64,000 nt of DNA from Candidatus Limnocylindria bacterium (lineage in GTDB: Bacteria; Chloroflexota; Limnocylindria; P2-11E), in NCBI GenBank assembly GCA_036564905.1, contig DATCOD010000194.1:7240-71239 (forward strand). The letters run 5' to 3'. The position numbers were made by a program, and so were the translations under genes. Below are positions 39,050 to 58,357 of the stretch, in pieces. Numbering within the stretch: the first letter of the stretch is position 1; each line of letters opens with the position of its first letter. Under the pieces are notes generated by a model. It had not been told where the DNA came from, did no database searches, and saw only the letters and a program-made list of their open reading frames with translations.

Positions 39050-39675
39050 AGCGCCCCGACGCGAGCGGTCGCGTCGACGAACGCATTCAGGAGCCGAAGG
39101 CCGTTCGCGCCCGACTTCTCGGGGTGGAACTGGACGCCGAGCACGCTGCCGGCGCCCGCGATGGCGCACCGCGTCCCGCCATAGTCGACCGTGCCGAGCA
39201 CATCGCTCGCTCGCGCGGGCTCGGGCACGAAGCTGTGCACGAAATAGAACTGGTCGCCGTCCCGCGTGTCACGCAGCCACGGGTGCGCGCCGGCGAGGCC
39301 CAGCGCGTTCCAGCCGATCTGGGGCAGGCGCGGCACGTCCTTCATCTGGACGACCGTTCCCGGGAGGAAGCCAAGGCCCCGCTCGCCGCGGTCCTCGTCG
39401 CTCCCTTCGAACAGGAGCTGCATACCGACGCAGATCCCGAGGATCGGCACGCCCCGCTCGCGCGCGTCGCGCAGGGCTGGCGCGAAGCCGAACCGGTCGA
39501 ACTCCCGCGCGCAGTGGCCGAAGTTCCCGACTCCGGGGAGCACGATCGCGGTCGCGTCGCGCAGACCAGCCGGCTCGCGAACCAGCTCGGCCCGGGCGCC
39601 GACGGTCGTGAGCGCCTTCCGCACGCTCGCGAGGTTGCCCACGCCGTAATCGACGATCGCGATCGGGCTACGCAC
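39046..39675 (-). CDS. hisH: Imidazole glycerol phosphate synthase glutaminase subunit
   Basis: 'IAIVDYGVGNLASV', 'PGVGNFG', 'GICVGMQLL' (catalytic Cys), 'VQFHPEKS'. Confidence 0.9.
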   Translation of the reverse strand: MRSPIAIVDYGVGNLASVRKALTTVGARAELVREPAGLRDATAIVLPGVGNFGHCAREFDRFGFAPALRDARERGVPILGICVGMQLLFEGSDEDRGERGLGFLPGTVVQMKDVPRLPQIGWNALGLAGAHPWLRDTRDGDQFYFVHSFVPEPARASDVLGTVDYGGTRCAIAGAGSVLGVQFHPEKSGANGLRLLNAFVDATARVGAL

Positions 39676-40270
39676 CCACGCGTCCCTTGCTGGATGGCGC
39701 CTTGCCCGCGCGCCGCGGATCCGTGCGTGCCGCGGTATCGATGACCCGGCCGAGCCCCTTCATGGTCGCCTCGAGCAGGTGATGCGGGTTGCCGCCGCGG
39801 ATCTGCGTGACGTGCAGCGTGAGCCGGCCGGTCTGCGCGAGCGACTCGAGGAAGTGCGGCATGAGCGTCGTGTCGAAGGTGCCGACGATCCGCTCCGATG
39901 GCGCGAGGTCGTAGGCGAACGCCGGACGGCCGCCGAGGTCGATGGCCACATTCACGAGGCACTCGTCCATCGGGACGGTGAGCGACGCGAACCGCACGAT
40001 CCCGAGGCGATCGCCGAGTGCCTGGTCGAGCGCGCGACCGAGCACGAGCCCGAGATCCTCGACCGTGTGGTGCTGGTCCACCTGCAGATCCCCCGTGGCC
40101 TTGACGCGCAGATCCATGAGCCCATGGACCGCCATCAGCTCGAGCATGTGGTCCATAAAGGGAATTCCTGTCGCAACGCGCGCCTGACCCTTCGCGTCGA
40201 GCTTCAGCGTGATCGCGACATCGGTCTCCTTGGTCTTCCGCGCTCGGGACCCCGTCCGGGTGGGCGTCAC
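39668..40270 (-). CDS. hisB: Imidazoleglycerol-phosphate dehydratase, monofunctional (no HAD/HolPase domain)
   Basis: 'RKTKETDVAITLKLD', 'TGIPFMDHMLE', 'DQHHTVED', 'GNPHHLLEA'. 200 aa. Confidence 0.9.
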   Translation of the reverse strand: MTPTRTGSRARKTKETDVAITLKLDAKGQARVATGIPFMDHMLELMAVHGLMDLRVKATGDLQVDQHHTVEDLGLVLGRALDQALGDRLGIVRFASLTVPMDECLVNVAIDLGGRPAFAYDLAPSERIVGTFDTTLMPHFLESLAQTGRLTLHVTQIRGGNPHHLLEATMKGLGRVIDTAARTDPRRAGKAPSSKGRVGA

Positions 40271-41370
40271 GCCGCGGCCGCCTTGAAGATCGAATCGATC
40301 GCGGCGACGACGCGGCCGTTCTCGGCCGGAGTTCCGATCGATACTCGCAAGCACCGGTCGCAACCGGGCCACGACGACACGTCGCGGAGCAGGATGCTGT
40401 GCTCGAGGAATTTCGCGTGCACCTCGGCGGGGGTCCGATCGGCGAGCCGGAAGAGGATGAAGTTGGTGACCGACGGGAACGCCTCGACCCCCGGCGCGCG
40501 CTGGAGCGCCGCGTAGACGCGGTCGCGCTCCCTCGCGCACTGCGCGATCCGCCGCGCGACGTCATCGTCGCGTTGCGCGATCCGGCCGCCGACGACCGTG
40601 GTGAGCGGGCTCACGTTATATGGCAGCTGCACGGCACGGAAGATCTCCGCCACGCGCGGGTGCACGATCAGCAACCCGAGACGGAGCCCCGCGGCGGCGC
40701 GCACTTTCGAGAAGGTCTTGGTCACGATGATGTTCGGATGCGCCGGCATGGCCGGAACGATCGTGTTGCCCGCGAAGTCGCTGTAGGCCTCGTCGACGAG
40801 GATCACCGTCTCGGGGTATCGCTCCGCCGCCGCCAGGATGATCGCGTCGTCGATGAGATTCCCCGTCGGATTGTTCGGCGTCGTGAAGCACACGATGTGC
40901 GGCTTCGCCCGGTCCAGCGCGGCGAGCACGCGCTCCTTGGTCACGAGATACGGAAGGCCGATGTGCTCCTCCGCGACGGTGCCGCCGGCGATCTGCGTGA
41001 GCCGGCCGTGCATCGTGTACGTCGGCTGGAAGAGCAGCGTGCTGCGGCCATGCCCGCCGAAGACGAGGAACACGTTGAGGAGCACCTCGTTGCTCCCGTT
41101 GCCGAAGATGAGCTGATCGGCCGCGACGCCGAAGCGTTTCGCGAGGCTCAGGCGCAGGTCCGCGCTCGCCTGCGCGGTCGGATAGCGGTTGAGGAGGATC
41201 GCCTCGAGCTCGGCGGGCGACAAATAGGCGCTGACCGGGTTGGGCTCGGCCCACTCGTTCGCGTTCACCCTGACGTCGGCCGCCATCTGCTGCGTGCGGT
41301 ACGCCTGGAACGCCCCGAGGTCGTCGCGCGGGCGGGGCAGCTGGTCGCTCACCTTCATAGCCTGCCACAC
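40267..41370 (-). CDS. hisC: Histidinol-phosphate aminotransferase
   Basis: 'ANEWAEP', 'FTTPNNPTG', PLP-Lys region 'TKTFSKVRAAAGLRLG'. Start may be the internal M at 41358. Confidence 0.85.
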   Translation of the reverse strand: MWQAMKVSDQLPRPRDDLGAFQAYRTQQMAADVRVNANEWAEPNPVSAYLSPAELEAILLNRYPTAQASADLRLSLAKRFGVAADQLIFGNGSNEVLLNVFLVFGGHGRSTLLFQPTYTMHGRLTQIAGGTVAEEHIGLPYLVTKERVLAALDRAKPHIVCFTTPNNPTGNLIDDAIILAAAERYPETVILVDEAYSDFAGNTIVPAMPAHPNIIVTKTFSKVRAAAGLRLGLLIVHPRVAEIFRAVQLPYNVSPLTTVVGGRIAQRDDDVARRIAQCARERDRVYAALQRAPGVEAFPSVTNFILFRLADRTPAEVHAKFLEHSILLRDVSSWPGCDRCLRVSIGTPAENGRVVAAIDSIFKAAAA

Positions 41371-41388
41371 GCGCCGCCGGAACGAACG

Positions 41389-42630
41389 CTAGCCGCGCAG
41401 CTCCATCGAGGCGGCGTGGAACTCCATGCCTTCGTGCTTCGCGATGGCCGAGCCGGCCCGCGCCGCCGCCGCGATGTTCCGGCCCGCGGTCACCTCGGTG
41501 GTCCAGTGGACGAAATCCTCGACCCGCAGCGGCGATGCCCACCGCGCCGTGCCGCCGGTCGGCAGGCAGTGATTGGACCCGGCGACGTAGTCGCCGAACG
41601 CGACGGCCGTCCGGGTGCCGACGAACACCGCGCCCGCGTTCCGCGCTCGCCCGACGAGCCGCGCGGCCCGTGCCCCGGCGAGATGGAGGTGCTCCGGCGC
41701 GGCGAACGCGGCCGCCTCCACCGCCGCTTCGAGCGACGGCGCCCGATACAGGCCGATGGCGCGGCCACCCCCCAGGCGGGAGATGACCGCGCGCACCACC
41801 GCGAGGATCCCGTCGTCGTCGCTGAGCAGCGCGGCGAACGGCCGGCCGCCGTGCTCGGCCTGGGCCTCGAGATCCAGGACGATCGCCGCGGGATCGGCAT
41901 CCTTCGATGCGATGACCACGAGCTCGCTCGGTCCCTGGAGCGCGTCGATGCCGACATCCGCGGAGACGAGCCACTTCGCCGCGGTGGTGTACGCGTTGCC
42001 CGGCCCGACGATCTTGTCGACGGCGTCGAGCGTCTTCGTGCCGTACGCGAGCGCCGCGACGGCCGCCGCTCCGCCGGCGCGGTAGAGACCGCGCGCGCGC
42101 ACCTTCGTCGCAGCGTACGCGAGGGCCGGGTCGATGGCCCCATCGGACGGCATCGGCGACACGAGGACGAGGTCGCCGACCTCCGCGACACGCGCCGGCA
42201 CGCCGATCATCAGCGCGGTCGATGGGTATCCGACGGTCCCGCGCGGGACGCATCCGCCGACGCGCGCGAGCGCTCGGGGCACGAGCACCTCGCTGAACGC
42301 GGCGCCGCGATGCGCGATCCGCTTCGGCTTCTGCGGTCGATGGAAGCCGAGGATCGCGTCATGGGAGCGATCGAGCGCGGAACGCAGCTCGGACGGGCAG
42401 GCCCGCGCCGCCGCGCGGAGCGATCGCGCGTCGATCCAGAGATCCTTCGGCCGCGCGCCCGGGTGGTCGAATCGGCGCACGTTCGCGAGGACCGCGGCGT
42501 CGCCCCGCCGGCGGACATCGGCGACGATCCGTTGCGTCGCCCGGACGACCGCCGCGTCGAAGACCGCGGTGGCACGGCGCCGCGTGACGTCGCGGCGGAA
42601 GCCCGCGAGATCGCCGACGCGCGCGTTCAT
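41389..42630 (-). CDS. hisD: Histidinol dehydrogenase
   Basis: 'KIVGPGNAYTTAAK', 'QGPSELVVIA', 'DLEAQAEHGG', 'VAGSNHCLPTGGTARWASPL'. Alternative start at 42642. Confidence 0.9.
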   Translation of the reverse strand: MNARVGDLAGFRRDVTRRRATAVFDAAVVRATQRIVADVRRRGDAAVLANVRRFDHPGARPKDLWIDARSLRAAARACPSELRSALDRSHDAILGFHRPQKPKRIAHRGAAFSEVLVPRALARVGGCVPRGTVGYPSTALMIGVPARVAEVGDLVLVSPMPSDGAIDPALAYAATKVRARGLYRAGGAAAVAALAYGTKTLDAVDKIVGPGNAYTTAAKWLVSADVGIDALQGPSELVVIASKDADPAAIVLDLEAQAEHGGRPFAALLSDDDGILAVVRAVISRLGGGRAIGLYRAPSLEAAVEAAAFAAPEHLHLAGARAARLVGRARNAGAVFVGTRTAVAFGDYVAGSNHCLPTGGTARWASPLRVEDFVHWTTEVTAGRNIAAAARAGSAIAKHEGMEFHAASMELRG

Positions 42631-43268
42631 CGCGCCGCCCATGCTTCGAGCCGGGACGCGAGCGCCGCGATGCGCTCGCGATCGCGCGCGTAGCTCACGC
42701 GATTCGCGATGAGCCGCGCCGTGCAGACCGCGATCTCCTCGATGATCGCGAGCCGGTTCTCCTTGAGCGTCCGGCCGGTGCTGACGAGGTCCACGATCCA
42801 ATCCGCCAGCCCGACCTGCGGCGCGAGCTCGACCGAGCCGCCGAGCTTGATGATCTCCACCTGGATGCCGCGTCCCTGGAAGTGTCGCTCGGCGACCCGC
42901 GGGTATTTCGTCGCGACCTCGAGCGACCCGAGGTGCCGGTACTCGTCGAGGGAACGATCGACCGTGCCCGCCGGTGCCGCCACGACGAAGCGGCATCGCC
43001 CGTAGCGGAGATCGACGAGCTCGAGGACATCCGCGTCGCTCTCGAGGAGCACGTCCTTGCCGACGATGCCGATGTCGGCCGCGCCGTGGGCCACGTGCGT
43101 GGGCACATCGCCGGGCCGCGCGAGGATGTATTCGACGTCCGTGCCCGGGATGACGAGCCGGCGGCCGCCATCGTCGAGCTCGTCCGTCGCGAGGCCCGCG
43201 GCCGCGAGCGCGACCTTCGTGTCGGCGAGCAGGGTGCCCTGGGCGAGCGCGATGCGAAGCGCCCTCAC
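42627..43268 (-). CDS. hisG: ATP phosphoribosyltransferase, short (HisZ-dependent) form
   Basis: 213 aa; 'LRIALAQGTLLADT', 'RPGDVPTHVAHGAADIGIVGKDVL', 'DLVSTGRTLKEN'. No C-terminal regulatory domain. GTG start overlaps the hisZ stop. Confidence 0.85.
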   Translation of the reverse strand: MRALRIALAQGTLLADTKVALAAAGLATDELDDGGRRLVIPGTDVEYILARPGDVPTHVAHGAADIGIVGKDVLLESDADVLELVDLRYGRCRFVVAAPAGTVDRSLDEYRHLGSLEVATKYPRVAERHFQGRGIQVEIIKLGGSVELAPQVGLADWIVDLVSTGRTLKENRLAIIEEIAVCTARLIANRVSYARDRERIAALASRLEAWAAR

Positions 43269-44455
43269 CGCGGCCCGCCGGTCAGCGCCGCGATGACCGC
43301 TTCGAGCTCGCGCGCGACCCCTTCGTACTCCACGTGCCCGTCGTCGATCACGCGGGCGCGGCGGACATCCTGGCCCGCGCCCTCCGCGATATCGCCGATC
43401 GCGACCGCGATGCCGGCGCCACGCAGCGCGACCGCGACCCGGAGCGTCGTCGCGTCGTCGACGTGCGGCGCGAGGAGCAGGAGCGGCGACTCGGCCTGCG
43501 CCTGCCACCCCGCGGCGACGAGGGCCTGGTGCAGATGGGGGACCGCGATCCCGAAGCCCGTCGCCGGTCGATCGGCGCCGAACCGGGCGAGGAGGCCGTC
43601 GTACCGTCCACCGGCCGCGATCGGGAATCCGAGATCCGCGACGGTGACCTGGAACACCACGCCGGTGTAATACGGGAGCGCCGGAACGAGCCCGAGGTCG
43701 AACCGGACGGCGCCACCGGCGCCGGCCGCCTCGAGGAGCGGCCGAAGGGCATCGAGCGTGTCGAGCGCGCTCTGCGACGCCGCGGGCGCGCCGGCGCGGG
43801 CGCCGGCGAGATCCGCCGACCGGTGGCGAAGGCCGCGCTCGAGCGCCGCGCCACGAGCGGCGCTCAGGCCCGCCGCGCGCGCGAGCGACAGCGTGCCGAC
43901 CAGATCCCCGCTGCGCGCCGCGGCGCTCACCCCCGCGCGCGCATCGGCCGGGAGCTCCGCGATGAAGCCGTCGAGGAAGCCGACATGACCGATGTCGATA
44001 TCCGGTGCGAGCAGCCCGCAGCGCGCGAGCGCGTCGGCGAGCAGCGCGATGACCTCGGCGTCCGCGCGCAGGGTCGCGTCGCCGATCAGCTCGACGCCCG
44101 CCTGGTCGTATTCGCGCTCCGATCCACGCATGGAGGCCTCTTCGCGGAAGATCGGCGCGAAGTACGCGAGCCGCAGCGTCGCGTCGGCTTGCCGGTAGCG
44201 CTGCGCGACCACGCGCGCCACCGCGGTCGTGACATCGGGACGGAGCGCGAGCAGCTGACCATCCCGATCGAGGAACCGCAGCGTGCGCCGCTCGTCCACC
44301 GTGATCGCGCCCTGCGCGAACTCCACCGTCGGCGGCTCGAGCGGCACGTAGCCGTAGCCGGCGAACGCGTTCATCAGCGTGCGCTCGATCACGTGAAGCT
44401 CGCGCGCCTCCGTGGGCAGGATGTCGCGGAAGCCGCGGGGGAGCGCGTTCTTCAC
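43265..44455 (-). CDS. hisZ: ATP phosphoribosyltransferase regulatory subunit (HisRS paralog)
   Basis: 'LPRGFRDILP' and 'YFAPIFREE...REYDQAGVELIG' are class II aaRS-like core motifs. No anticodon-binding domain. Lies directly upstream of the short hisG. Confidence 0.8.
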   Translation of the reverse strand: MKNALPRGFRDILPTEARELHVIERTLMNAFAGYGYVPLEPPTVEFAQGAITVDERRTLRFLDRDGQLLALRPDVTTAVARVVAQRYRQADATLRLAYFAPIFREEASMRGSEREYDQAGVELIGDATLRADAEVIALLADALARCGLLAPDIDIGHVGFLDGFIAELPADARAGVSAAARSGDLVGTLSLARAAGLSAARGAALERGLRHRSADLAGARAGAPAASQSALDTLDALRPLLEAAGAGGAVRFDLGLVPALPYYTGVVFQVTVADLGFPIAAGGRYDGLLARFGADRPATGFGIAVPHLHQALVAAGWQAQAESPLLLLAPHVDDATTLRVAVALRGAGIAVAIGDIAEGAGQDVRRARVIDDGHVEYEGVARELEAVIAALTGGPR

Positions 44456-45267
44456 GCGGGCTGCGGGAAGGCGTCGACGCGTTCGAGGCCTCCCACCGCT
44501 GCGCGAAGCTCGTGGAGCGCGCGGATCCGCGCATCCGGGACGATCGTCCCGGCGGCGCCACCGTTCGTCCGGTCGAGCCAGATGCTGCGCAGCCCGGCAC
44601 GCCGCGCGCCCACGACGTCACGCTCAAGGCTATCTCCGACCATCACCGCCTCGGTGCGCTCGACGTCGAGCGCGTCCAGCGCCGCGCGGAAGATCAGCGG
44701 ATCGGGCTTGCCCGCGCCGACCTCGCCTGAGATCACGATCGCGGCGAATCGCGATGCGAGCGTGGTGGCCGCGAGCTTCTCGCGCTGCACGTCCGGCGCT
44801 CCGTTGGTGACGAGGGCGAGCCGGTGATCGCGGCCGACATCGTCGAGCGTCGCCTCGGCCTCGGGGTCGATCGGACACAGGGCCCGGCGCGCCGTGCGAT
44901 ACACCGCCACGAGCTCGTCGGCCAGCGCGCCATCCGTGATGCCCGCGGCCTCGAGTCCGCCGCTCCAGACCGCGCGGCGGAAGCCCGGCACGTACCGGCG
45001 CAGCGCCGCGAGGCCCGGCTGGTCGCCGGCGAACTCACCCCAGAGCGCCTCGCCCCACCAGATCCCCAGCGCATCCGCGTACGCGAACACTTCCGAGGAG
45101 CGGAAAAGTGCCTCCGCCGTCTCACCGGCCGCGACCTGAATGACACCGCCGTCGACCCCGGCCCGGCGGGCGGCGTGCGCGCTCGTCTGCTCCAGCGCAC
45201 GGAGGGTGGCCTCATCTTCGAGCAGCAGGGTGTTGTCGAGGTCGAAGAGGATCGCGCGGATCGGCAT
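44452..45267 (-). CDS. HAD-superfamily (subfamily IA-like) hydrolase, first gene of the his operon
   Basis: 'ILFDLDNTLL' (DxDxT motif I), 'LVTNG' (motif II), 'GKPDP...MVGDSLERDVVGARRAG' (motifs III/IV). Confidence 0.75.
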   Translation of the reverse strand: MPIRAILFDLDNTLLLEDEATLRALEQTSAHAARRAGVDGGVIQVAAGETAEALFRSSEVFAYADALGIWWGEALWGEFAGDQPGLAALRRYVPGFRRAVWSGGLEAAGITDGALADELVAVYRTARRALCPIDPEAEATLDDVGRDHRLALVTNGAPDVQREKLAATTLASRFAAIVISGEVGAGKPDPLIFRAALDALDVERTEAVMVGDSLERDVVGARRAGLRSIWLDRTNGGAAGTIVPDARIRALHELRAAVGGLERVDAFPQPA

Positions 45268-45344
45268 TGGTCGAGTTTAGGGAGCGGAGCGCGTGTCCGG
45301 CCGAGGGCTTGGCCGCGGTGCGCCGCAGTGGTACCGTAACGGCG

Positions 45345-45431
45345 ATGCGCTCCGTCGTCCTCGGCATCATCGTTATTGAGTCCCTTATCGGGGGCTTGAA
45401 CGACGCTGGGAGGCGCACCACCACCGCGTAG
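45345..45431 (+). promoter_or_regulatory. Leader peptide ORF 1 (MRSVVLGIIVIESLIGGLNDAGRRTTTA), a Val/Leu/Ile-rich attenuator leader
   Basis: Read directly from sequence. Eight of eleven codons after Met-Arg-Ser encode Val/Leu/Ile. The peptide overlaps the antiterminator segment 'ctgggaggc'. Confidence 0.7.
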
Positions 45432-45457
45432 CGAGAACAGAGACCGGAACCACCAGA

Positions 45458-45486
45458 GACCTCCCAGGACATGGGAGGTCTTTTTG
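45458..45486 (+). terminator. Rho-independent terminator of attenuator 1
   Basis: 'gacctccca ggacat tgggaggtc ttttt' is a perfect 9-bp GC-rich stem followed by a T-run. The 5' half can alternatively pair with 'tgggagg' inside the leader ORF, forming an antiterminator. Confidence 0.7.
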
Positions 45487-45584
45487 ATTCCGGGAAGTTC
45501 AGGCGAGGGAGGGCGTTGCCCGACCGAGCCGCAAGGGACCCACGAACGGAGCAAGCCGCAGCTGGCGAAGAGAGAGGGACACAA

Positions 45585-45779
45585 ATGGATGCCCGACGCG
45601 AGCTGGCCAAGCGACTGGCAAGGCTGGGTATGCACTTCGAGGGCGAGCGCCTCGACCATGCCGAGCGGATCGTCCACGCGCATGTTCCGCATCACACCTC
45701 GCTCACCGACCTGGTCCTCATGACGATCTGCGTCGAGGCCTACCGCAAGAGCGACCTCGACCTGCCGGCCTGGGTCTGA
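45585..45779 (+). CDS. Conserved small protein (64 aa), paralog of the ilvC-leuA intergenic small protein; function unknown
   Basis: 'MDARRELAKRLARLGMHFEGERLDHAERIVHAHVPHHTSLTDLVLMTICVEAYRKSDLDLPAWV'. RBS 'gagaggga' 7 nt upstream. About 50% identical to the 49659-49844 ORF. Confidence 0.65.
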   Translation: MDARRELAKRLARLGMHFEGERLDHAERIVHAHVPHHTSLTDLVLMTICVEAYRKSDLDLPAWV

Positions 45780-45789
45780 ACCGGTAGCC

Positions 45790-46380
45790 ATGGACGATCA
45801 GGCCGGGCGCACGTACGCGATCGCGTTCCTCGGCGAGGCGCGCACGCCGATCAGGACATCGGTGGTGCGGCTCGGCGCGGACGACGATCCGCGGGTCGTC
45901 GCGGAGTCGCTGCGCCACGCGGAGTCCGACCGGCTGAGCGATCCGATCCTGTCGGCGGGCCTAGGCGGGCCTCGGGATCCGGAGCGCTCCCTTCATCTGA
46001 CGGCGCTCCACGCGGAGCAGGCCGTCCGGCTCGGCCGCGCGTTGAACGGTCCCGGGCGCGTCACCGCGTTCGCGGACCTCGGCCCGTACTGCTTCGTGCT
46101 CGGCCGGCCGACGGAGGAGATCCGGATCTTCTGCCGGACGATCCTCGGGCCGCTGGCCGAGAGCGCGCAGCGCGACGAGCTGCGCACGCTCGAGGAATTC
46201 CTCCGGGCCCACGGGAGCGTGAACGCGGTCGCCCGCGCGCTCTTCCTGCACCGGAACACCGTGCGTCAGCGTCTCAAGCGGATCGGCGAGCTCACCGGCG
46301 CCGACCTCGAGGACGCCGACCAGCGCATGCAGCTCTACCTCGCGGTCCTCGGCCAGAACGCCCTGCGGGCGCTGGCGTGA
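45790..46380 (+). CDS. PucR/CdaR-family transcriptional regulator (C-terminal HTH_30)
   Basis: C-terminus 'LRTLEEFLRAHGSVNAVARALFLHRNTVRQRLKRIGELTG' is the PucR-type HTH. Starts 8 nt after the small-protein stop. Confidence 0.7.
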   Translation: MDDQAGRTYAIAFLGEARTPIRTSVVRLGADDDPRVVAESLRHAESDRLSDPILSAGLGGPRDPERSLHLTALHAEQAVRLGRALNGPGRVTAFADLGPYCFVLGRPTEEIRIFCRTILGPLAESAQRDELRTLEEFLRAHGSVNAVARALFLHRNTVRQRLKRIGELTGADLEDADQRMQLYLAVLGQNALRALA

Positions 46381-46460
46381 TCGGGACTGTGCAGAGTGCA
46401 CCGACTTCCAGGTGGAGCGTTGACGCGACCGCGGTCCGTCCGGCACTGTCCACCTTCCTG

Positions 46461-46535
46461 ATGCGGAACCTCGTGGTCGTCGTCCTTATCGGCATCGTCC
46501 TCATTGAGGACGAGGGGAGACGGCTGGGAGGCTAG
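46461..46535 (+). promoter_or_regulatory. Leader peptide ORF 2 (MRNLVVVVLIGIVLIEDEGRRLGG), the ilvB attenuator leader
   Basis: Twelve of fourteen codons after Met-Arg-Asn are Val/Leu/Ile. The stop lies inside the 'ctgggaggctag' antiterminator arm. Confidence 0.75.
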
Positions 46536-46562
46536 CGGCACACACCACGGACCATGCGAGCA

Positions 46563-46593
46563 AGGCCTCCCGGCAACGGGAGGCCTCTTTGTT
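46563..46593 (+). terminator. Rho-independent terminator of the ilvB attenuator
   Basis: 'aggcctccc ggcaac gggaggcct ctttgttg'. The alternative pairing of 'gcctccc' with 'gggaggc' in the leader gives an antiterminator. Confidence 0.7.
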
Positions 46594-46627
46594 GTCCAGG
46601 ACAGAGATGGATGAAGGAGGCACCGCG

Positions 46628-48337
46628 ATGGCGACACTTGCGACGACCGAGCTGCCCGAGGCGAGCACCGTCGTTCACCGCGGCGCCGACCTGGTCTGGC
46701 GGGCCCTCGAGCACGCCGGCGCGGACGTGGCGTTCGGCTACCCCGGTGGCGCGTGCCTGCCGCTGTACGACGCGCTCCCCGATCACCCGCGCGTGCATCA
46801 CGTCCTCGTGCGCCACGAGCAGGGCGCCGCGCACATGGCCGACGGCTACGCGCGCGCGACCGGACGGGTCGGCGTGTGCGTCGCCACCTCCGGCCCCGGC
46901 GCGACCAATCTCGTGACCGGGCTCGCCTGCGCATACATGGACAGCGTGGCGCTGGTCGCGATCACCGGCCAGGTCTCCACGCCGATGATGGGCCGGGACG
47001 CCTTCCAGGAGACCGACGTGCTCGGCATGGTCGGGCCGATCACCAAGCATTCGTTCCTCGTCGAGCGGGTCGAGGACATCGAGCCCACGATCGCGCGCGC
47101 GTTCGAGGTGGCGCGCGCGGGCCGCCCCGGACCGGTGGTGGTCGACATCCCGAAGGACATCCAGCTCCGGACCGCCACGGCGCGCTCCCGCCCGACAGAC
47201 CCGACGACCGCTCCGCAGGGCGCCGACGCGAGCGAGCTCGATCGGGCGGCGGCGCTGCTCGCGTCCGCGCGGCGGCCGGTGATCATCGCCGGCCACGGCG
47301 TGCGCCTCGGGCGCGCCCACCGCGAGCTGCGCGCGCTCGCCGAGCGCATCGACGCGCCGGTCGTGACCACACTGCTCGGCATCGGCGCGATCGCCGAGGA
47401 CCATGCGCTCGCGGCCGGGATGCTCGGGATGCACGGCAGCGCCAACGCGAACCGCATGGTGAACGACGCGGACGTGATCCTGGGCGTGGGGCTGCGCTTC
47501 GACGATCGCGTGACCGGGAAGATCAGCGCCTTCGCGCCGAACGCCAAGATCATCCATGCCGACCTCGACGCGACCCAGATCGGCAAGAACGTGCCCACCG
47601 CGATCGGCATCGTTGCCGACGCGGGAGCGGTGCTGTTCGCGCTCGCCGCCCGCCTCCAGCGCGTGTCGCGGCCGGACTGGTCCGGACGTCTCGCGACCGC
47701 TCGTTCCCGCCCGCGGCTCGCGGCATACGAGGACCGGGTCGAGCTCCCGCCGCGCCTGGTCATCCGCGCGATCCGTGAGACCGCGAGCGACGACGCGTAC
47801 TTCGTCGCCGACGTGGGTCAGCATCAGATGTGGGCCGCGCAGCATCTGCGCCTCACGAACCCGGACCGGTTCCTCACCTCGGGCGGCCTCGGCGCGATGG
47901 GCTATGCCCTGCCGGCCGCGATCGGCGCGCAGATGGGCCGGCCGACGTCAGAGGTGTGGGCCATCGCCGGCGATGGGGGCGCGCAGATGACGTTCCAGGA
48001 GCTCGGGACCGCGGTGCAGGAGCGCACGCCGGTGAAGCTCGCGATCATGAACAACGGCTACCTCGGGATGGTCCGCCAGTGGCAGCAGCTGTTCCACGAC
48101 GGTCGGATCTCACAGACCCCGATCAGCAGCCCGGACTACGTGAAGCTCGCCGACGCGTACGGCGTGCTCGGCATCATGGTCGACCGTCGCGCCGACCTCG
48201 GCCCCTCGCTCGCGCGCGCTCGCGCGCACCAGGGGCCCGTCGTGCTCGACATCCGCATCGAGCGCGAGGCCAACGTGTGGCCGATCGTGCCGCCTGGCGG
48301 CGCGAACGCGGACCTCATCGAAGAGCCGGTCTCGTGA
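46628..48337 (+). CDS. ilvB: Acetolactate synthase (AHAS) large subunit
   Basis: 'GYPGGACLPLYDAL', 'RHEQGAAHMADGYARATGRVGVCVATSGPGATNLVTG', TPP motif 'GDGGAQMTFQELGTA...NNGYLGMVRQWQ'. RBS 'gaaggagg' 8 nt upstream of the ATG. Confidence 0.9.
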   Translation: MATLATTELPEASTVVHRGADLVWRALEHAGADVAFGYPGGACLPLYDALPDHPRVHHVLVRHEQGAAHMADGYARATGRVGVCVATSGPGATNLVTGLACAYMDSVALVAITGQVSTPMMGRDAFQETDVLGMVGPITKHSFLVERVEDIEPTIARAFEVARAGRPGPVVVDIPKDIQLRTATARSRPTDPTTAPQGADASELDRAAALLASARRPVIIAGHGVRLGRAHRELRALAERIDAPVVTTLLGIGAIAEDHALAAGMLGMHGSANANRMVNDADVILGVGLRFDDRVTGKISAFAPNAKIIHADLDATQIGKNVPTAIGIVADAGAVLFALAARLQRVSRPDWSGRLATARSRPRLAAYEDRVELPPRLVIRAIRETASDDAYFVADVGQHQMWAAQHLRLTNPDRFLTSGGLGAMGYALPAAIGAQMGRPTSEVWAIAGDGGAQMTFQELGTAVQERTPVKLAIMNNGYLGMVRQWQQLFHDGRISQTPISSPDYVKLADAYGVLGIMVDRRADLGPSLARARAHQGPVVLDIRIEREANVWPIVPPGGANADLIEEPVS

Positions 48338-48591
48338 CCGACCCGCAGCACACCTTCGAGCTCACGGTCGACGCCGTGCCCGGCGCGATCGAGCGCGTGC
48401 TGTCGGTCGTGCGCCGCAGGCGGCTCGGCCTGCGCTCGTTCCGGGCGGACGCCGGCAGTCAGGGGCAGTGGAACGTCCGCATCGAGGCCGGCGCCGTCCC
48501 AACGGAAGCGGCCCTTGCGCTCAGACAATTCGCATCGCTCATCGACGTTCGCAACGCGCGCCTGTCCGATGGCGATCGCACCGCGAGCTAA
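48334..48591 (+). CDS. ilvN: Acetolactate synthase small subunit, short ACT-only form (85 aa)
   Basis: 'HTFELTVDAVPGAIERVLSVVRRRRLGLRSF' is the ACT domain of IlvN/IlvM. GTGA overlap with ilvB. Confidence 0.65.
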   Translation: MTDPQHTFELTVDAVPGAIERVLSVVRRRRLGLRSFRADAGSQGQWNVRIEAGAVPTEAALALRQFASLIDVRNARLSDGDRTAS

Positions 48592-48609
48592 AGAAAGCAG
48601 GAGGAAGAG

Positions 48610-49659
48610 ATGGCCACCATCTATTACGACAAGGACGCGGATCCGCGGGCGCTGGCCGGCAAGACGATCGCCGTGATCGGCTACGGGAGCCAGGGCCACG
48701 CCCACGCCCAGAACCTGCGCGACAGCGGGCACTCCGTCGTCATCGGCCTGGCCGCCGGCAGCAAGAGCTGGGCGACCGCCGAGCGGGACGGCTTCGACGT
48801 CCGCGAGGTTGCGGACGCCGCGCGCAACGCCGACGTGATCGTCATCCTCGTGCCTGACCCGAAACATCGGTCGGTCTATGAACGGATCGCGCCGTCGCTC
48901 GGGCGCGGGCGGACCATCGTCGTGGCGCACGCGTTCTCCGTCCATTTCAAGGAGATCGTCGCGTCGCCCGACATCGACGTCGTGCTCATCGCGCCGAAGG
49001 CCCCGGGGCACCGGATGCGCGAGCTCTTCGTCGAGGGCAAGGGCGTGCCCGCGCTCGTCGCGGTGCACCAGGACGCCAGCGGCCACGCCAAGCAGACGGC
49101 GCTCGCGTACGCGCAGGCCGTCGGCTCGACGCGCGCGGGCGTCATCCAGACCACGTTCGCGGAGGAGGTCGAGACCGATCTCTTCGGCGAGCAGACGGTC
49201 CTGTGCGGCGGTATCTCCGAGCTGGTGAAGGCCGGTTTCGAGACCCTGGTCGAAGCCGGCTACCAGCCGGAGATCGCGTACTTCGAGTGCCTGAACGAGA
49301 TGAAGCTCATCGTCGACCTCATGTACGAGGGCGGGCTCTCGTACATGCGGTACTCGGTGAGCGACACGGCCGAGTACGGCGACTACGTGTCCGGCAAGCG
49401 GGTCATCGACGCGCGCGTTCGGCAGACCATGCGTGACGTGCTCGCCGAGATCAAGGACGGCAGCTTCGCCAAGCGGTGGATCGCCGAGGCCCGGGCGGGT
49501 GCGCCCGAGCTGCTCGCGACGCGTGCCCGCGAGCAGGACTCCCAGATCGAGCGGGTCGGACGATCGCTCCGCTCGATGATGCCCTGGCTCCCGAAGCGCG
49601 AGTTCGGCCAGCCCGCGGCGCCGGACGCGCCGAAGCGCGAGACCGCGGGGGTCGCGTAA
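48610..49659 (+). CDS. ilvC: Ketol-acid reductoisomerase
   Basis: '[21 protein letters not shown]', 'LVPD', 'GHRMRELF', '[17 protein letters not shown]'. Strong RBS 'gcaggaggaagag'. Confidence 0.95.
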
Positions 49660-49844
49660 TGGAGGCGTTCCGCGACCGGCTCGCGCGGCTCGGCATGCGC
49701 TTCGGCGACGAGCAGCTCGGCCACGCCCACTCGCTGGTCACGCGCTACGGATTCGTCCCGGAGGAGCTCACCGACATCCAGCTCATGACCATCTGCGTCG
49801 AGGCCTACCGCCATCCGGATTCCGACCTGCCGTTGTGGATCTGA
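49659..49844 (+). CDS. Conserved small protein (61 aa), paralog of the 45585-45779 ORF; translationally coupled between ilvC and leuA
   Basis: '[61 protein letters not shown]'. Its ATG overlaps the ilvC TAA (TAATG). Confidence 0.65.
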   Translation: MEAFRDRLARLGMRFGDEQLGHAHSLVTRYGFVPEELTDIQLMTICVEAYRHPDSDLPLWI

Positions 49845-53268
<3,424 letters not shown>

Positions 53269-53272
<4 letters not shown>

Positions 53273-54513
53273 CCAGCACCGTCGCGGTCGCGACGCGATC
53301 CATGACCGTCGCGGACGCGGCCGTGGCCATCGCCGGGCAGGTCGAGCGCACGCCGCTCCTCGCGTCGCCGGATCTGTCCGCGCTCGCGGGCTGCGAGATC
53401 CATCTCAAGCTCGAGAACCTGCAGCGCACCGGTGCGTTCAAGCTGCGCGGCGCGCTCGCCCGGCTCCTCGCGCTCTCCAGCGAGGAGCGCGCGCGCGGCG
53501 TCGTCACCGCGTCCGCGGGCAACCACGGGCAGGGCGTCGCCGTCGGCGCCGCTGCGCTCGGGATCCCCGCCTGCGTCGTGCTCCCGCGCGGCGTGCCGCT
53601 GGCGAAGCTCACCGCGATCCAGCGCGCCGGCGCGGAGGTCGTGATCACCGGGTCGGACTACGACGAGGCGTTCGCCGCGGCGCGCGAGCTCGCCGCGGAG
53701 CGCCGCGCCGTCTACATCCACGCGTTCGACGATCCGGCCGTCATCGCGGGACAGGGGACCGTCGCTCGCGAGATGCTCGAGGACCGCCCCGACCTCGACG
53801 CCATCGTCGTGCCGGTCGGCGGTGGCGGGCTCCTCGCCGGGTCGGCCCTCGCGATCGCCGAGGCCGGCGCGTCCGTCGCGCTCGTCGGTGTCCAGGCCGC
53901 CGGCGCGACCGCGTTCGCCGACGCCGTCCGGAGCGGATCGATCGCCGCGGGCGGCAGCGCCACCATCGCCGACGGCATCGCGGTCCGCCGGCCGGCGGAG
54001 CGTACGGTGGCGATCGCGCGAGCGCACCGGGCGACGATGCGGATCGTCACGGATGAGGCGATCGCGCGCGCGATGGTGCTGCTGCTCGAGCGCCACAAGC
54101 TCCTCGCGGAGGCCGCGGGCGCCGCGGGCGTCGCCGCGCTGCTCGACGGAGCGGCCGAGCTCGCGGGCAAGCGGGTCGGCATCATCGTGAGCGGTGGCAA
54201 CATCGACCCGAACCTGCTCGGGAAGGTCGTGCAGCAGGGCCTCGCGAGCGCGGGCCGCTACCTCGCGTTCCGCACCTGGCTCGACGACCGTCCGGGACAG
54301 CTGCACGAGCTCACCGGCATCCTGGGCGGCGAGCACATCAACATCCTGCACGTCGGCATCCATCGCGTCGGGCCGTACACCGCGCTCGGGCGCGTGGGCC
54401 TCGATGTGATCGTCGATACCCGCGATGCCGCGCACGCCCAGGAGGTCCTGGCACTCGTGCGGCGCTCCGGCTTCCCGGCCGAGCAGCTCATCGACGTCCA
54501 GCCGGAGCGGTGA
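53269..54513 (+). CDS. ilvA: Threonine ammonia-lyase (biosynthetic, single regulatory domain)
   Basis: PLP-Lys '[18 protein letters not shown]', '[10 protein letters not shown]', 'GGGGLLAG', and a C-terminal ACT-like domain. ATGA overlap with ilvD. Confidence 0.9.
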
Positions 54514-54532
54514 GCTGACCGGCCGCACGCTC

Positions 54533-55918
54533 GTGGCGAAGGTGTGGGACGAGCACGTCGTCCGGCGCGCCCCGGGCGAGCCAGATCTCCTCTACGTCGA
54601 TCTGCATCTCGTGCACGAGGTGACCTCGCCGCAGGCGTTCGACGGCCTGCGCCTCGCCGGCCGCCGCGTGCGCCGTCCCGATCTCACGCTCGCGACCGCG
54701 GACCACAACATCCCGACCGTCCTGGACCGGCCGGTCGCCGACCCGGTCTCGGCGCGCCAGATCGACGCGCTGACCCGGAACTGCGCGGAGTTCGGCGTCC
54801 GCCTGTACCCGATGGGCGATGCCCGTCAGGGCATCGTGCACGTCATCGGGCCGCAGCTCGGTCTCAGCCAGCCGGGGATGGTCATCGTGTGTGGCGACAG
54901 CCACACCGCGACGCACGGCGCGCTCGGGGCGATCGCCTTCGGGATCGGGACCAGCGACGTCGAGCACGTGCTCGCGACGCAAACGATCCCGCGGACGCCT
55001 CCGCGCACGATGGCGGTCACGATCGACGGCCGGACGCCCGCGGACGTGAGCGCGAAGGACATCATCCTCGGCGTCATCGCGCGCATCGGGATCGGCGGCG
55101 GCACCGGCCACATCATCGAGTACCGCGGCGACGCGATCCGGGCCCTATCGATGGAGGGGCGGATGACCGTCTGCAACATGTCCATCGAGGCCGGCGCGCG
55201 CGCGGGGCTGATCGCGCCCGATGACACCACGTTCGCCTACCTGCGTGGCCGGATGCACGCGCCGGCCGGATCGGATTGGGACCGCGCGGTCGAGCACTGG
55301 CGCGGCCTCGCGACCGACGCCGACGCCTCGTTCGACCGCGAGGTGCGCATCGCCGCGGCCGACCTCCGGCCGTACGTGACCTGGGGCACGAATCCCGCGC
55401 AGGCCGTCGGCATCGACGGCCGGGTGCCCGACCCCGAAGCGCTCGCGGGCGATGCGGCACGGGAGAGCGCGCGGCGCGCGCTCGCGTACATGGATCTCCG
55501 CCCCGGCACGGCGATGCGCGACATCGCGGTCGATTCGGTGTTCCTGGGCTCGTGCACGAACGGGCGGATCGAGGACCTCCGGGCCGCGGCCGACGTGCTC
55601 CGCGGCCGCCGGGTCCGCGCCGGACTACGCGCGCTCGCGGTACCCGGGTCGATGGCCGTGAAGGCCCAGGCCGAGAGCGAGGGCCTCGATCGGATCTTCG
55701 TCGCGGCGGGGTTCGAGTGGCGCAGCGCCGGCTGCTCGATGTGCCTCGGGATGAACGACGACGTCGCCGCGCCGGGCGAGCGGGTCGCCTCGACGTCGAA
55801 CCGCAACTTCGAGGGCCGCCAGGGGCCGGGCGCGCGCACGCACCTCGTGTCCCCGGCCGTCGCCGCCGCCACCGCCGTGGCCGGACACCTCGCGACTCCG
55901 GCGGATCTCGCGCGATGA
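54533..55918 (+). CDS. leuC: 3-isopropylmalate dehydratase large subunit
   Basis: N-terminus '[10 protein letters not shown]' matches the LeuC N-terminus. '[24 protein letters not shown]', '[11 protein letters not shown]', '[11 protein letters not shown]', '[12 protein letters not shown]' are aconitase-family Fe-S ligand motifs. Confidence 0.9.
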
Positions 55919-56520
55919 GAGCCACCTCGCGCGTGACCGGCCGCGCGCTGCCGCTCGACCGCCGCGACGTCGACACCGATCAGATCATCCCGAGCGACTG
56001 GCTGAAGCGCGTCGAGCGCACCGGCTACGGCGCGGGGCTGTTCGCCGCGTGGCGAACGGATCCGGCATTCGCGCTCAACGACCCGCGGTTCGCGGGCGCG
56101 ACCGTCCTGGTGACCGGAGCGAACTTCGGCTGCGGGAGCTCGCGCGAGCACGCGGCCTGGGCGCTCGAGGACTGGGGCTTCCGCGCGATCGTCGCGCCGA
56201 GCTTCGCCGACATCTTCCGCTCGAACTGCCTCGCCGTCGGCCTCGTGCTCGCGGAGCTTCCGGAGGCCGACATCGCGCGCGTGCTCGCGGCGGTCGCGCG
56301 CGACCCATCGATCGAGGTCAGCGTCGACGTCGACCGGCGGATCGTCGAGGTGCCGGCGCTCGGCTACGCCGCGGCGTTCCCGCTGGACGACGCGTCGCGC
56401 GCGCGCCTGCTCGCGGGACAGGACGAGATCGACCTGAGCCTCGCCCACGCGGGCGAGATCGCGAGCTACGAGGCGCGGCGGCACGGGTGGCTGCCGCGCC
56501 TGCGGACCCCGTCGGGCTAG
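55915..56520 (+). CDS. leuD: 3-isopropylmalate dehydratase small subunit
   Basis: '[14 protein letters not shown]' and '[17 protein letters not shown]'. ATGA overlap with leuC. Confidence 0.9.
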
Positions 56521-57410
56521 CGCAGCTCCTTCGCGATCGCGCGCAGCTGCGCGAGCGTGTCGCCGCCGAGCATCTGGAGACAGACGTGGTCCGCGCCGGC
56601 GGCGTGCTGGGCCGCGACCCGGCCGGCGATGCTCCGGGCGTCGCCCGACGCGACGATCGCGTCCATCAGTTCTTCGCTCCCGCCGTCGGCCAGGTCCGCC
56701 TCGCTCCAGCCCAGGCGCCGCAGGTTGTTCGCGTAGTTCTCGAGCGCCAAGTAGTACTTGGTATGCCGTTTGGCCGCGGCGAGGATCTTCTCGCGGTCCA
56801 GGCCGACGACCGCGGCCTGCTCCACCGCGAGCAGCGGCTCGGCACCGAGCGCCTCGCGGGCGACGGCGGTGTGCTCCACCGGCACGAAGTACGGGTGCGC
56901 GCCCAGCGAACGCTCCGCCGCGAGGCGCAGCATCTGCGGGCCCAGCGCCGCCAGCACCCGGGGAGCGGGCGGCTCGTCGCGATTCGGGCCGACGAACGGC
57001 GCCGCGTCCATCGCGTCGAGGTACGCGCGCATGTGCTCCAGCGGCTTCCGGTAGGTGCCGCCCCGGATCGCGACGCTCGGCTTGTGGCTCACGCCGAGGC
57101 CCAGCAGGAACCGGTCGGGATAGGCCTCGCTGAGCGTCTTGGCGCCGTTCGCCATCGCGACCGGATCGCGGGCCCAGATGTTCGCGATGCCGGACGCGAC
57201 GATCAGGGTCTTCGTGGCCGCAAGGAGGATGCCCGCGTGGGCGAAGACCTCTTTGCTGCCCAGCGACTCCTGGATCCACAGGGTCTTGAAGCCCAGCGAT
57301 TCGACCTCGTTCGCGAACCTCCGCGCGTCCGCCGCGGTCATGCGCTCGGGGTCCGCGGACCACACGCCGACGGTGCCCAGCTGCGTTGCGGTCTCGCGTG
57401 CGGTCTTCAT
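56517..57410 (-). CDS. Luciferase-like monooxygenase (LLM) family, probable F420-dependent oxidoreductase
   Basis: Bacterial-luciferase TIM-barrel signatures 'VWSADP...FANEVESLGFKTLWIQES' and 'LGLGVSH'. Confidence 0.7.
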   Translation of the reverse strand: MKTARETATQLGTVGVWSADPERMTAADARRFANEVESLGFKTLWIQESLGSKEVFAHAGILLAATKTLIVASGIANIWARDPVAMANGAKTLSEAYPDRFLLGLGVSHKPSVAIRGGTYRKPLEHMRAYLDAMDAAPFVGPNRDEPPAPRVLAALGPQMLRLAAERSLGAHPYFVPVEHTAVAREALGAEPLLAVEQAAVVGLDREKILAAAKRHTKYYLALENYANNLRRLGWSEADLADGGSEELMDAIVASGDARSIAGRVAAQHAAGADHVCLQMLGGDTLAQLRAIAKELR

Positions 57411-57433
57411 CCGATGCGCGCATTCTCCCATCC

Positions 57434-58357
57434 GTGCGGCCATTCCGCTTCGCGATCACGACCTCCCGCGCCGGGTCCGGCCCGGAGTGGCGTGCGAAGG
57501 CCCGCCGGATCGAGGAGCTCGGCTACGACACCCTCCTGCTGACCGACCACATCACCTCGCAGCTCGCCCCGGTCCCCGCCCTGGCCGCGGCGCTCGAGGC
57601 GACGACCCGGCTGCGTGTCGGCAGCTACGTCTTCGCGAACGATTACCGCAATCCGTTCATGCTCGCGAAGGAGGTCGCCACGCTCGACGTGCTGTCCGGC
57701 GGGCGCGTCGAGTTCGGGATCGGCGCGGGGTGGCACGCGCGCGACTACGAGATGCTCGGCATCCCGTACGACGCGCCGGCGACCCGGGTCTCGCGGATGA
57801 TCGAAGCGGTCCGGCTCATCGACCGGCTCTTCGTCGAGGACACGGTCGACGCGAGTGGCCGCTACTACACGGTCCGCGGCGCGAAGCTGCTCCCCAAGCC
57901 GGTCCAGCGGCCACGGCCGCCGCTGATGATCGGCGGCGGCGGCCCGCGGATGCTCCGTTTCGCGGCGGAGCACGCGGACATCGTCGCGCTCAACCCGCAG
58001 TTCAGCGCGGACGGCCAGCCGGTCGTCTCCGACCTCACGACCGGCGCGACCGAGCGGAAGCTCGAGCGGCTACGCGCGGAGGTCGGCGCGCGGCTCGCCG
58101 AGGTGGAGCTGAACGTGTTCATCGTCGACGCGGGCGTGACCGATGAGCCGCGTTCGCGGTGGGACGCGCTGGCCACCCGCCTGAAGGGCGCGGCCGCACA
58201 GCTGGTGGACTCGCCGTACTTCCTCTACGGGTCGACCGCGGAGCTGAAGCGGCAGCTCCTCGCGCGCCGCGAGCGCCTCGGGATCACGTACATCGGGTTG
58301 CCGGAGCAGGCGATGGAGCCATTCGCGCCGCTCGTCCGGGAGATGCGCGGGGTCTAG
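57434..58357 (+). CDS. Luciferase-like monooxygenase (LLM) family, probable F420-dependent oxidoreductase
   Basis: 'FRFAITTS...ELGYDTLLLTDH', 'EFGIGAGW', 'RPPLMIGGGGPRMLRFAAEHADIV'. Divergent from the preceding LLM gene. Confidence 0.7.
   Translation: MRPFRFAITTSRAGSGPEWRAKARRIEELGYDTLLLTDHITSQLAPVPALAAALEATTRLRVGSYVFANDYRNPFMLAKEVATLDVLSGGRVEFGIGAGWHARDYEMLGIPYDAPATRVSRMIEAVRLIDRLFVEDTVDASGRYYTVRGAKLLPKPVQRPRPPLMIGGGGPRMLRFAAEHADIVALNPQFSADGQPVVSDLTTGATERKLERLRAEVGARLAEVELNVFIVDAGVTDEPRSRWDALATRLKGAAAQLVDSPYFLYGSTAELKRQLLARRERLGITYIGLPEQAMEPFAPLVREMRGV

Follow-up and report, generated by a model that had tools for sequence, protein, structure and literature searches.

A stand-alone homolog of accessory subdomain II of IPMS-type synthases is encoded between ilvC and leuA in Limnocylindria

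In a branched-chain amino acid (BCAA) operon of a Candidatus Limnocylindria bacterium, a 61-codon ORF lies between ilvC and leuA. This raises the questions of whether so short a frame is a gene, where its product comes from and what it might act on. The window, the whole 64,000 nt stretch of DNA analysed here, has a G+C content of 71%, and long spurious ORFs are abundant in high G+C DNA. The 11 kb surrounding the small ORF (sORF) contain 84 ORFs of 40 aa or more, and its length alone is therefore not above chance. The sORF and its immediate neighbours are:

48610-49659, forward strand: ilvC, ketol-acid reductoisomerase (KARI), 349 aa (Pfam KARI_N and KARI_C)
49659-49844, forward strand: sORF, 61 aa plus stop, with a predicted three-helix domain (helices at residues 2-10, 17-29 and 39-50) and a conserved C-terminal tail
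49848-51602, forward strand: leuA, long form (HMGL-like, IPMS_D2 and LeuA_dimer by Pfam), with a probable GTG start and an alternative ATG at 49878

The DNA at the end of ilvC reads ...GGGGGTCGCG TAA TG GAG..., with the ilvC TAA at 49657-49659 and the sORF ATG at 49659-49661, so that the two overlap by one base (TAATG); the sORF stops at the TGA at 49842-49844. This overlap had been described in an earlier sequence-only reading of the locus and was confirmed here, as was the 61-aa translation, which was identical to ours. The same reading placed the leuA ATG 33 nt beyond the sORF stop. That is the literal distance to the ATG of 'MPFGKYRPF' at 49878, but an in-frame GTG at 49848 sits 3 nt past the stop. 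An ATG or GTG follows the small-ORF stop by 2-4 nt in about 18 of 20 related species, and the Pro-Pro-x-Ser codons after this putative start vary synonymously among species (CCA CCC, CCG CCG, CCC CCG). Because the start codon and Pro-Pro-x-Ser are both kept in these species, leuA most probably starts at GTG 49848. The gap is then 3 nt, and the sORF would therefore be tightly joined on both sides.

The sORF is part of a chain of coupled frames, in which ilvB and ilvN overlap by GTGA (approximately 48334-48337), ilvC and the sORF by TAATG, the sORF and leuA are separated by 3 nt, and leuA and ilvD overlap by ATGA (51599-51602). The coordinates of the ilvB/ilvN and leuA/ilvD overlaps were checked by translation. 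It is reasonable to infer from this coupling, as had been proposed, that the sORF product would be made in a fixed ratio with KARI and IPMS; the efficiency of translational coupling is seldom 1:1. In the window the sORF and leuA share a reading frame, with TGA-TCC between them. We considered a read-through fusion of the sORF to LeuA and rejected it: the gaps are 2 or 4 nt in three relatives (L005, L019 and L020), so the frame relation is not conserved and such a fusion is unsupported.

The base composition of the sORF is that of a protein-coding gene. G+C at the three codon positions was 0.68/0.40/0.94 in the sORF, 0.69/0.46/0.94 in ilvC and 0.70/0.47/0.93 in leuA, and this pattern was absent from the other two frames across the sORF. 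The doubts raised in the sequence-only reading, that the frame might lack codon-usage adaptation and that relatives might lack the ORF, were both answered, as this composition matches that of the flanking genes and the ORF was found in related loci. A search of 5.8 billion protein clusters returned 58 clusters of sORF orthologs at 90% identity, 72-97% identical to the sORF and 49-78 aa long. All were unnamed or 'hypothetical', and their named sources were Candidatus Limnocylindria or Chloroflexota MAGs. At the orthologous ilvC-leuA junctions (L001-L007), all contigs examined have the small gene starting on the final base of the ilvC stop codon, with leuA next, and the stop/start overlap with ilvC is retained in relatives as TAATG, TGATG or TAGTG.

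Scanning one genome per species gave 30 loci, almost all from records named Limnocylindria or Chloroflexota, and we annotated the genes around these loci by tblastn using the proteins of the window. One bin among them is labelled Saccharimonadales and is probably mis-binned. The order (pucR)-ilvB-ilvN-ilvC-small-leuA was present in all of L012-L027, followed in most by ilvD-ilvA-leuC. The small gene, which had been described as an unusual insertion into the operon, is thus no one-off: the family is class-wide and duplicated, with varied neighbours. We also compared dN/dS ratios (Nei-Gojobori, 66-78 species pairs, dS approximately 0.54 for all genes compared). Median dN/dS was 0.22 for the sORF (78 pairs), 0.19 for leuA, 0.15 for the paralog of the sORF described below (sPar) and 0.10 for ilvC. 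Purifying selection on the sORF is therefore about as strong as on leuA.

The paralog lies upstream of the operon. The sequence-only reading had pointed to it at 45585, and the relationship held up, with sPar and the sORF 55% identical (BLASTP E 7e-20). Orthologs of sPar formed 51 clusters, all of them 'hypothetical' in their sources, and no third copy of the small gene was found in the window. The region from the first leader to the ilvB attenuator contains the following features:

45347-45433, forward strand: leader peptide 1, MRSVVLGIIVIESLIGGLNDAGRRTTTA and stop, Val/Ile/Leu-rich, upstream of sPar (read from the DNA)
approximately 45455-45490, forward strand: intrinsic terminator hairpin of attenuator 1, a AGAGACCTCCCA-GGACA-TGGGAGGTCTTT core and then a T-run (RNA fold, -28.1 kcal/mol, z -5.2)
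45585-45779, forward strand: sPar, 64 aa, which has a Shine-Dalgarno-like AGAGAGAGGGA of its own and ends 10 nt before the regulator gene
45790-46380, forward strand: short PucR-type HTH_30 transcription regulator, 196 aa (Pfam PF13556, E 2e-23)
46462-46536, forward strand: leader peptide 2, MRNLVVVVLIGIVLIEDEGRRLGG and stop, Val/Ile/Leu-rich, upstream of ilvB (read from the DNA)
46563-46596, forward strand: intrinsic terminator of attenuator 2, AGGCCTCCCG-GCAA-CGGGAGGCCT and then CTTTGTTG (terminator scan and RNA fold, -27.0 kcal/mol, z -3.7)

Attenuator 1 precedes sPar and the PucR-type regulator gene, and attenuator 2 precedes ilvB and the genes that follow it, including the sORF and leuA. 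No Rfam family matched in 44000-58000, a region that includes both attenuators, and a riboswitch, T-box or known leader RNA was rejected accordingly. In L040 (UBA4730), a near-identical leader and terminator stand before sPar alone, with a convergent gene after it, which makes sPar in that genome a monocistronic gene under attenuator control. We infer from these sequences that both small proteins would be made when Val, Ile or Leu is scarce, by ribosome-mediated attenuation.

With true leaders at 45347 and 46462, the sORF itself might be suspected of being a leader or attenuator ORF for leuA, or else a chance ORF of the kind that abounds in G+C-rich DNA. In E. coli, ilvL and leuL encode the leader peptides of the ilv and leu attenuators, and the sORF is likewise a short ORF within a BCAA operon. 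It differs from such leaders in having 61 codons, a predicted domain, selection at the amino acid level, no enrichment in regulatory codons, and Leu codons that are scattered with no run of them. The terminator scan found no terminator between 49659 and 50000, and thus none between the sORF and leuA, and the sORF had no Rfam match. A chance ORF is opposed by the conservation evidence (ortholog clusters, synteny and selection). We regard this pair of explanations as extremely improbable. Codon-position G+C, the paralog, the 58 ortholog clusters, conserved synteny and purifying selection together place the sORF above chance.

We then asked what the small proteins are related to. Pfam gave no match to any small member among the sORF, sPar and 33 aligned members, at E values up to 10. 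Its HCS_D2 family (PF22617) was matched only by P0145, a true synthase fragment. The first lead came from NCBIfam, in which TIGR00973 (leuA_bact) matched at positions 332-385 with E 0.2. When members were searched one by one, five different small proteins matched leuA_bact or PRK00915 in the same register, 333-386, with E 0.005-0.2 and scores of 10-15 bits, far under the cut-offs. We built a profile from 24 small-protein sequences (A1) and ran it with HMMER against 1.84 billion representative proteins, which brought in approximately 25 further small proteins of 61-88 aa, with identity down to approximately 30%. The profile also matched the synthase C-terminus P0145 (E 8e-4 among 1.8 billion proteins), which itself matched the NCBIfam IPMS model with E 4e-11. 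We rejected P0145 as a bridging small protein and took it out of the small-protein set, as its frame is open to the contig edge, making it the C-terminal end of a complete short synthase whose gene precedes ilvD. Proteins of 84-146 aa that match HCS_D2 only were similarly rejected as small proteins. These are fragments, some from frameshift-ridden long-read contigs, and were used solely as a source of accessory-domain sequence.

Using P0145, we gathered 28 accessory-domain fragments of short synthases that have no regulatory domain (A4). This alignment matched crystal structures of IPMS, MAM synthase and HCS with E 3e-31 to 5e-9. Comparison by hhalign of 32 small proteins (A3) with A4 gave a probability of 94.8% and E 4.8e-8 over 56 columns at 30% identity, and aligned sORF residues 1-55 with the segment after 'GKLSGR'. 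Searches of PDB sequences with profiles A1 and A2 gave nothing significant, with 6e1j appearing only at E 1.8. Since the NCBIfam register matches, the A1 search and the hhalign comparison agree, the small proteins are homologous to accessory subdomain II of short-form IPMS/CMS/HCS-type synthases, which is the C-terminal half of PF22617 HCS_D2 and approximately positions 333-386 of TIGR00973, and is represented in structures 6e1j, 4ov9, 3rmj, 2ztj and 3ivs. No similarity to the adjacent long-form LeuA was detected (hhalign probability 0.1%), and we rejected a recent duplication of a piece of leuA on this basis; the sORF co-occurs with a complete LeuA that it does not resemble. The A1 search also gave long matches (P0108, P0117 and others) that we judged not to be homologs. 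These are TPR-like repeat proteins ('RRIVAEYPVTPESLRDLS') that match A1 positions 16-44 only, in up to 16 repeats, and their scores were judged to be summed helical-hairpin resemblance.

The small proteins differ from the IPMS, citramalate, homocitrate and methylthioalkylmalate synthases in standing alone, at 61-64 aa, with neither TIM barrel nor subdomain I, and the GKxSGR motif is absent from them. The sORF is a separate 61-aa polypeptide, and the frame upstream of it is ilvC, with no DRE-TIM (HMGL-like) barrel or subdomain I. We classify it neither as a synthase nor as an HCS_D2 member, because it scores below the curated thresholds and has no barrel, subdomain I or GKxSGR. Judged by its sequence, the sORF product is a known domain, the second half of HCS_D2, in a diverged and free-standing form. 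We hold it highly probable that 49659-49844 encodes a real, conserved Limnocylindria protein of IPMS subdomain II ancestry.

The predicted model of the sORF product is all-helical, with three helices, and can be superposed on subdomain II of solved synthases. This structural match involves a predicted model, and small helical domains are a class prone to many weak matches. The positions common to the small proteins and the synthases are mostly core or helix-cap positions and not known interface residues. The small proteins also end in a conserved extension, ...LMTICVEAYRxPDxDLPxW[IV]-COOH, and thus carry a tail (EAYRxPDxDLPxW[IV]) that the synthase domain lacks; in more distant members the C-terminus reads PxW[VI] or E[LIV]V. 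This tail is disordered in the predicted model, and a conserved disordered tail of this sort would be typical of docking motifs.

The gene neighbourhoods suggest how such a protein could have arisen. Most species have the sORF type between ilvC and a long leuA, three loci have it with overlaps before a short leuA (L010, L044 and L045), and single loci have ilvC-small-ilvD (L028) or ilvC-small-aminotransferase (L046); ilvC is the most constant neighbour of this type. The ilvC-small-leuA position is kept by more distant homologs even with a short-form leuA. The sPar type occurs before pucR, as in the window, directly before or overlapping ilvB (L022-24, L027 and L028), or alone (L029-36 and L040-41), and a distant member (P0130) precedes an ilvB-like gene in L009. 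In L008 and L042, a short synthase with no regulatory domain is found between ilvC and ilvD. Because these form a series of ilvC-synthase-ilvD (L008 and L042), ilvC-small-ilvD (L028) and ilvC-small-leuA-ilvD, the family most likely arose from the 3' end of a short synthase gene, devoid of a regulatory domain, that was formerly located between ilvC and ilvD. The remnant would then have been retained and duplicated, with the long-form leuA placed behind it in most Limnocylindria. This history would be a clean example of a gene remnant turned new gene.

The same series allows that the sORF is a functionless relic of the 3' end of a short-form synthase, a spacer whose translation, and not its product, hands ribosomes on from ilvC to leuA. 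Its position is that of the synthase 3' end in the ilvC-synthase-ilvD operons of L008 and L042, and it is tightly coupled on both sides. A spacer would not, however, preserve an amino acid sequence, and the sORF has a median dN/dS close to that of leuA (0.22 over 78 pairs) and a protein-like second-position G+C of 0.40. Further, sPar has been maintained as a monocistronic gene that has an attenuator and a ribosome-binding site of its own and a dN/dS of 0.15, and the C-terminal tail, missing in synthases, is conserved even in distant members. We consider a functionless relic very unlikely.

If the sORF is a functional derivative of subdomain II, the role of that subdomain in IPMS may indicate what it does. 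In IPMS, the active site of one chain is capped by its partner's accessory domain. Subdomain II makes leucine-dependent salt bridges to the partner barrel (Arg32A-Asp375B and Arg35A-Asp345B) and to the regulatory domain (Arg470B-Glu353B), inhibition by leucine amounts to the locking of a closed, asymmetric state, and truncations that cut into the accessory domain impair catalysis (PMC9860122).

The sORF probably acts on a branched-chain amino acid enzyme. The best explanation overall, to which we assign a probability of roughly 45%, is a domain-derived small protein that would be expressed in starvation and may mimic subdomain II on IPMS. The sORF would be well placed as a mimic acting in trans because it is a free subdomain II, is predicted to be starvation-induced and directly precedes leuA on a shared mRNA. 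Under a shortage of branched-chain amino acids, attenuation would be relieved and the sORF and sPar products made. The free sORF protein would bind IPMS at the catalytic barrel or at the regulatory domain, where the PDxDLPxW[IV] tail of the small protein could provide an additional anchor, and would change the gating of the enzyme or its sensitivity to leucine feedback during starvation. The sPar product may act likewise on another partner, for example AHAS or the PucR-type regulator. This trans-mimic ('microProtein') mechanism for the sORF on IPMS is tentative, and we place it well short of even odds. IPMS is the putative target on account of ancestry and gene position. Against IPMS as the target count the neighbours that are not leuA, namely ilvD in L028, an aminotransferase in L046 and ilvB in L009, L022-24, L027 and L028, as well as the solitary sPar of L040. 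The constancy of ilvC beside the sORF type could merely reflect origin.

MicroProteins are small single-domain proteins derived from a domain of a larger protein, such as plant LITTLE ZIPPER and animal ID proteins. By analogy, the sORF product is small, has a single domain and is homologous to the relay domain of a larger protein, with which it would share a physiological signal and, as proposed, an action. The known examples are eukaryotic and target transcription factors, whereas the sORF is bacterial and its putative parent is a metabolic enzyme. A wider microProtein layer of BCAA control, in which end-product feedback is overridden or retuned by the sORF through IPMS and by sPar through AHAS or the PucR-type regulator, seems doubtful. 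In such a layer the decoys would compete with, or supplement, the active-site cap and the allosteric relay that the enzyme itself carries, and control would be post-translational, by a decoy domain derived from the same enzyme family. We found nothing relevant in the literature on Limnocylindria BCAA genes or on trans-acting IPMS accessory domains, and no description of the sORF family. The family is 'hypothetical' in every source and has no Pfam or NCBIfam model, yet it lies within a core biosynthetic operon of Limnocylindria, a class of widespread soil and freshwater Chloroflexota. Subdomain II ancestry gives a cheaply testable idea, that the 7-kDa sORF protein binds IPMS and alters its inhibition by leucine. 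If true, IPMS would join the rare metabolic enzymes of bacteria that are regulated by a separate copy of one of their own domains, and production of leucine and keto acids could be de-regulated in a new way.

Other partners were weighed against IPMS. The small proteins could bind the short HTH_30 PucR-type regulator and activate or antagonise it, so that the sORF feeds back on transcription of the operon. At 196 aa, this regulator is truncated relative to full-length PucR/CdaR, matches only the C-terminal parts of models of approximately 400 positions and has no usual N-terminal sensor. Its gene follows sPar by 10 nt in the window and adjoins it in many relatives, and with one paralog beside the regulator and the other within the regulated operon, the layout would suit a feedback loop. 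However, sPar is found with no pucR directly before or overlapping ilvB in L022-24, L027 and L028, it is monocistronic at a separate locus in L029-36 and L040-41, and sORF-type genes never adjoin pucR. Among 1.8 billion proteins we found no fusion of the small-protein domain to an HTH protein, and the ancestry of the small proteins is an enzyme domain rather than a regulator. We rate this as unlikely.

Less probable again is that the small proteins modulate or assemble another BCAA enzyme, a reading that we see as decidedly unlikely. The candidates are KARI (IlvC), whose gene always lies upstream of the sORF type, and AHAS (IlvB with IlvN), whose gene follows sPar in several species. Adjacency of ilvC and the small gene persists where leuA is not present (L028 and L046), but descent from a synthase gene located after ilvC explains this adjacency equally well. 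For AHAS, sPar overlaps the start of ilvB in L024 and L027, P0130 is directly upstream of an ilvB-like gene, and the IlvN of the window is unusually short, at 84 aa with an ACT domain only. No contact of the IPMS accessory subdomain with KARI or AHAS is known, and Pfam gave no match to the C-terminal domain of AHAS small subunits at E values up to 10. The AHAS small subunits IlvN, IlvM and IlvH do resemble the sORF product in being small, encoded in ilv operons, translationally coupled and located beside a feedback-controlled first-step enzyme. They differ in having the ACT fold (βαββαβ), whereas the sORF product is predicted to be helical and has no ACT or ALS_ss_C match, and a separate ilvN is present alongside it.

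Two elements in the BCAA locus of the window were identified from the sequence as predicted classical BCAA attenuators, and Rfam contained no model for either.

45347-45490 (+): predicted BCAA attenuator 1, with a leader peptide (MRSVVLGIIVIESLIGG...) rich in Val, Ile and Leu, then a strong hairpin and a T-run
46462-46596 (+): predicted BCAA attenuator 2, with a leader peptide (MRNLVVVVLIGIVLIEDEG...) rich in Val, Ile and Leu, then a strong hairpin and a T-run

Attenuator 1 would control sPar, the 64-aa paralog of the small gene between ilvC and leuA (sORF), together with the adjacent pucR, and attenuator 2 would control ilvB and the genes beyond. The same leader as in attenuator 1 also lies upstream of a monocistronic sPar in the related locus L040 (4787-4870).

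Two short genes belong to the BCAA locus.

45790-46380 (+): PucR-type HTH_30 regulator, 196 aa
48334-48591 (+): ilvN, AHAS small subunit, only ~84 aa

Compared with full-length PucR/CdaR proteins, the regulator is missing the N-terminal sensor domain. Its length is 220-234 aa in the related loci L015 and L005. Some species have it between sPar and ilvB; others do not, and there sPar abuts ilvB. The start of ilvN overlaps the stop of ilvB (GTGA); the C-terminal ALS_ss_C domain is absent from ilvN, and its homologs in relatives gave only a weak match, to ACT_5.

The leuA start in the window is likely GTG 49848, 3 nt past the sORF stop, rather than ATG 49878; gene callers differ on leuA length in two related loci, L001 and L002 (579 vs 569 aa). 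In the window, leuA is in frame with sORF, a relation that is not conserved. Three related loci carry operon variants resembling evolutionary intermediates.

L028, 4989-5212: ilvC-small-ilvD, where small is an sORF-type gene, without leuA
L008, 18-254, and L042, 7001-8559: ilvC-(short synthase without regulatory domain)-ilvD

L042, like L043, is a long-read contig in which numerous genes are split by frameshifts.

Upstream of the BCAA locus lies a divergent histidine cluster.

39342-45267 (-): histidine biosynthesis cluster, including hisB/hisC/hisD-like ORFs and a short hisG
43265-44455 (-): hisZ, a member of this cluster
44452-45267 (-): HAD hydrolase adjoining hisZ

The hisZ-HAD/sPar adjacency is conserved in L031 and L035, even with the ilv operon located elsewhere.

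About 2 kb from monocistronic sPar, a convergent cluster (L029 3776-6911, L033 5159-8010, L040 7319-10149, - strand) encodes a homocitrate/IPMS-like synthase that has no regulatory domain and terminates in ...DRLLTEEELDALARLD*, along with a LeuD-LeuC-like fusion protein of some 690-730 aa with 28-30% identity to window LeuC and LeuD. The cluster may represent a second pathway for 2-oxoacid elongation.

Long matches in the HMMER search with the sORF-family profile, among them P0108 (1602 aa), P0117 and P0120, were NTPase/TPR-like repeat proteins, with scores inflated by multiple repeat matches (E 3e-42). Their repeat, ESLxIxRRIVAEYPVTPESLRDLSxSL, fits profile positions 16-44 up to 16 times, a resemblance that probably reflects convergent helical-hairpin similarity.
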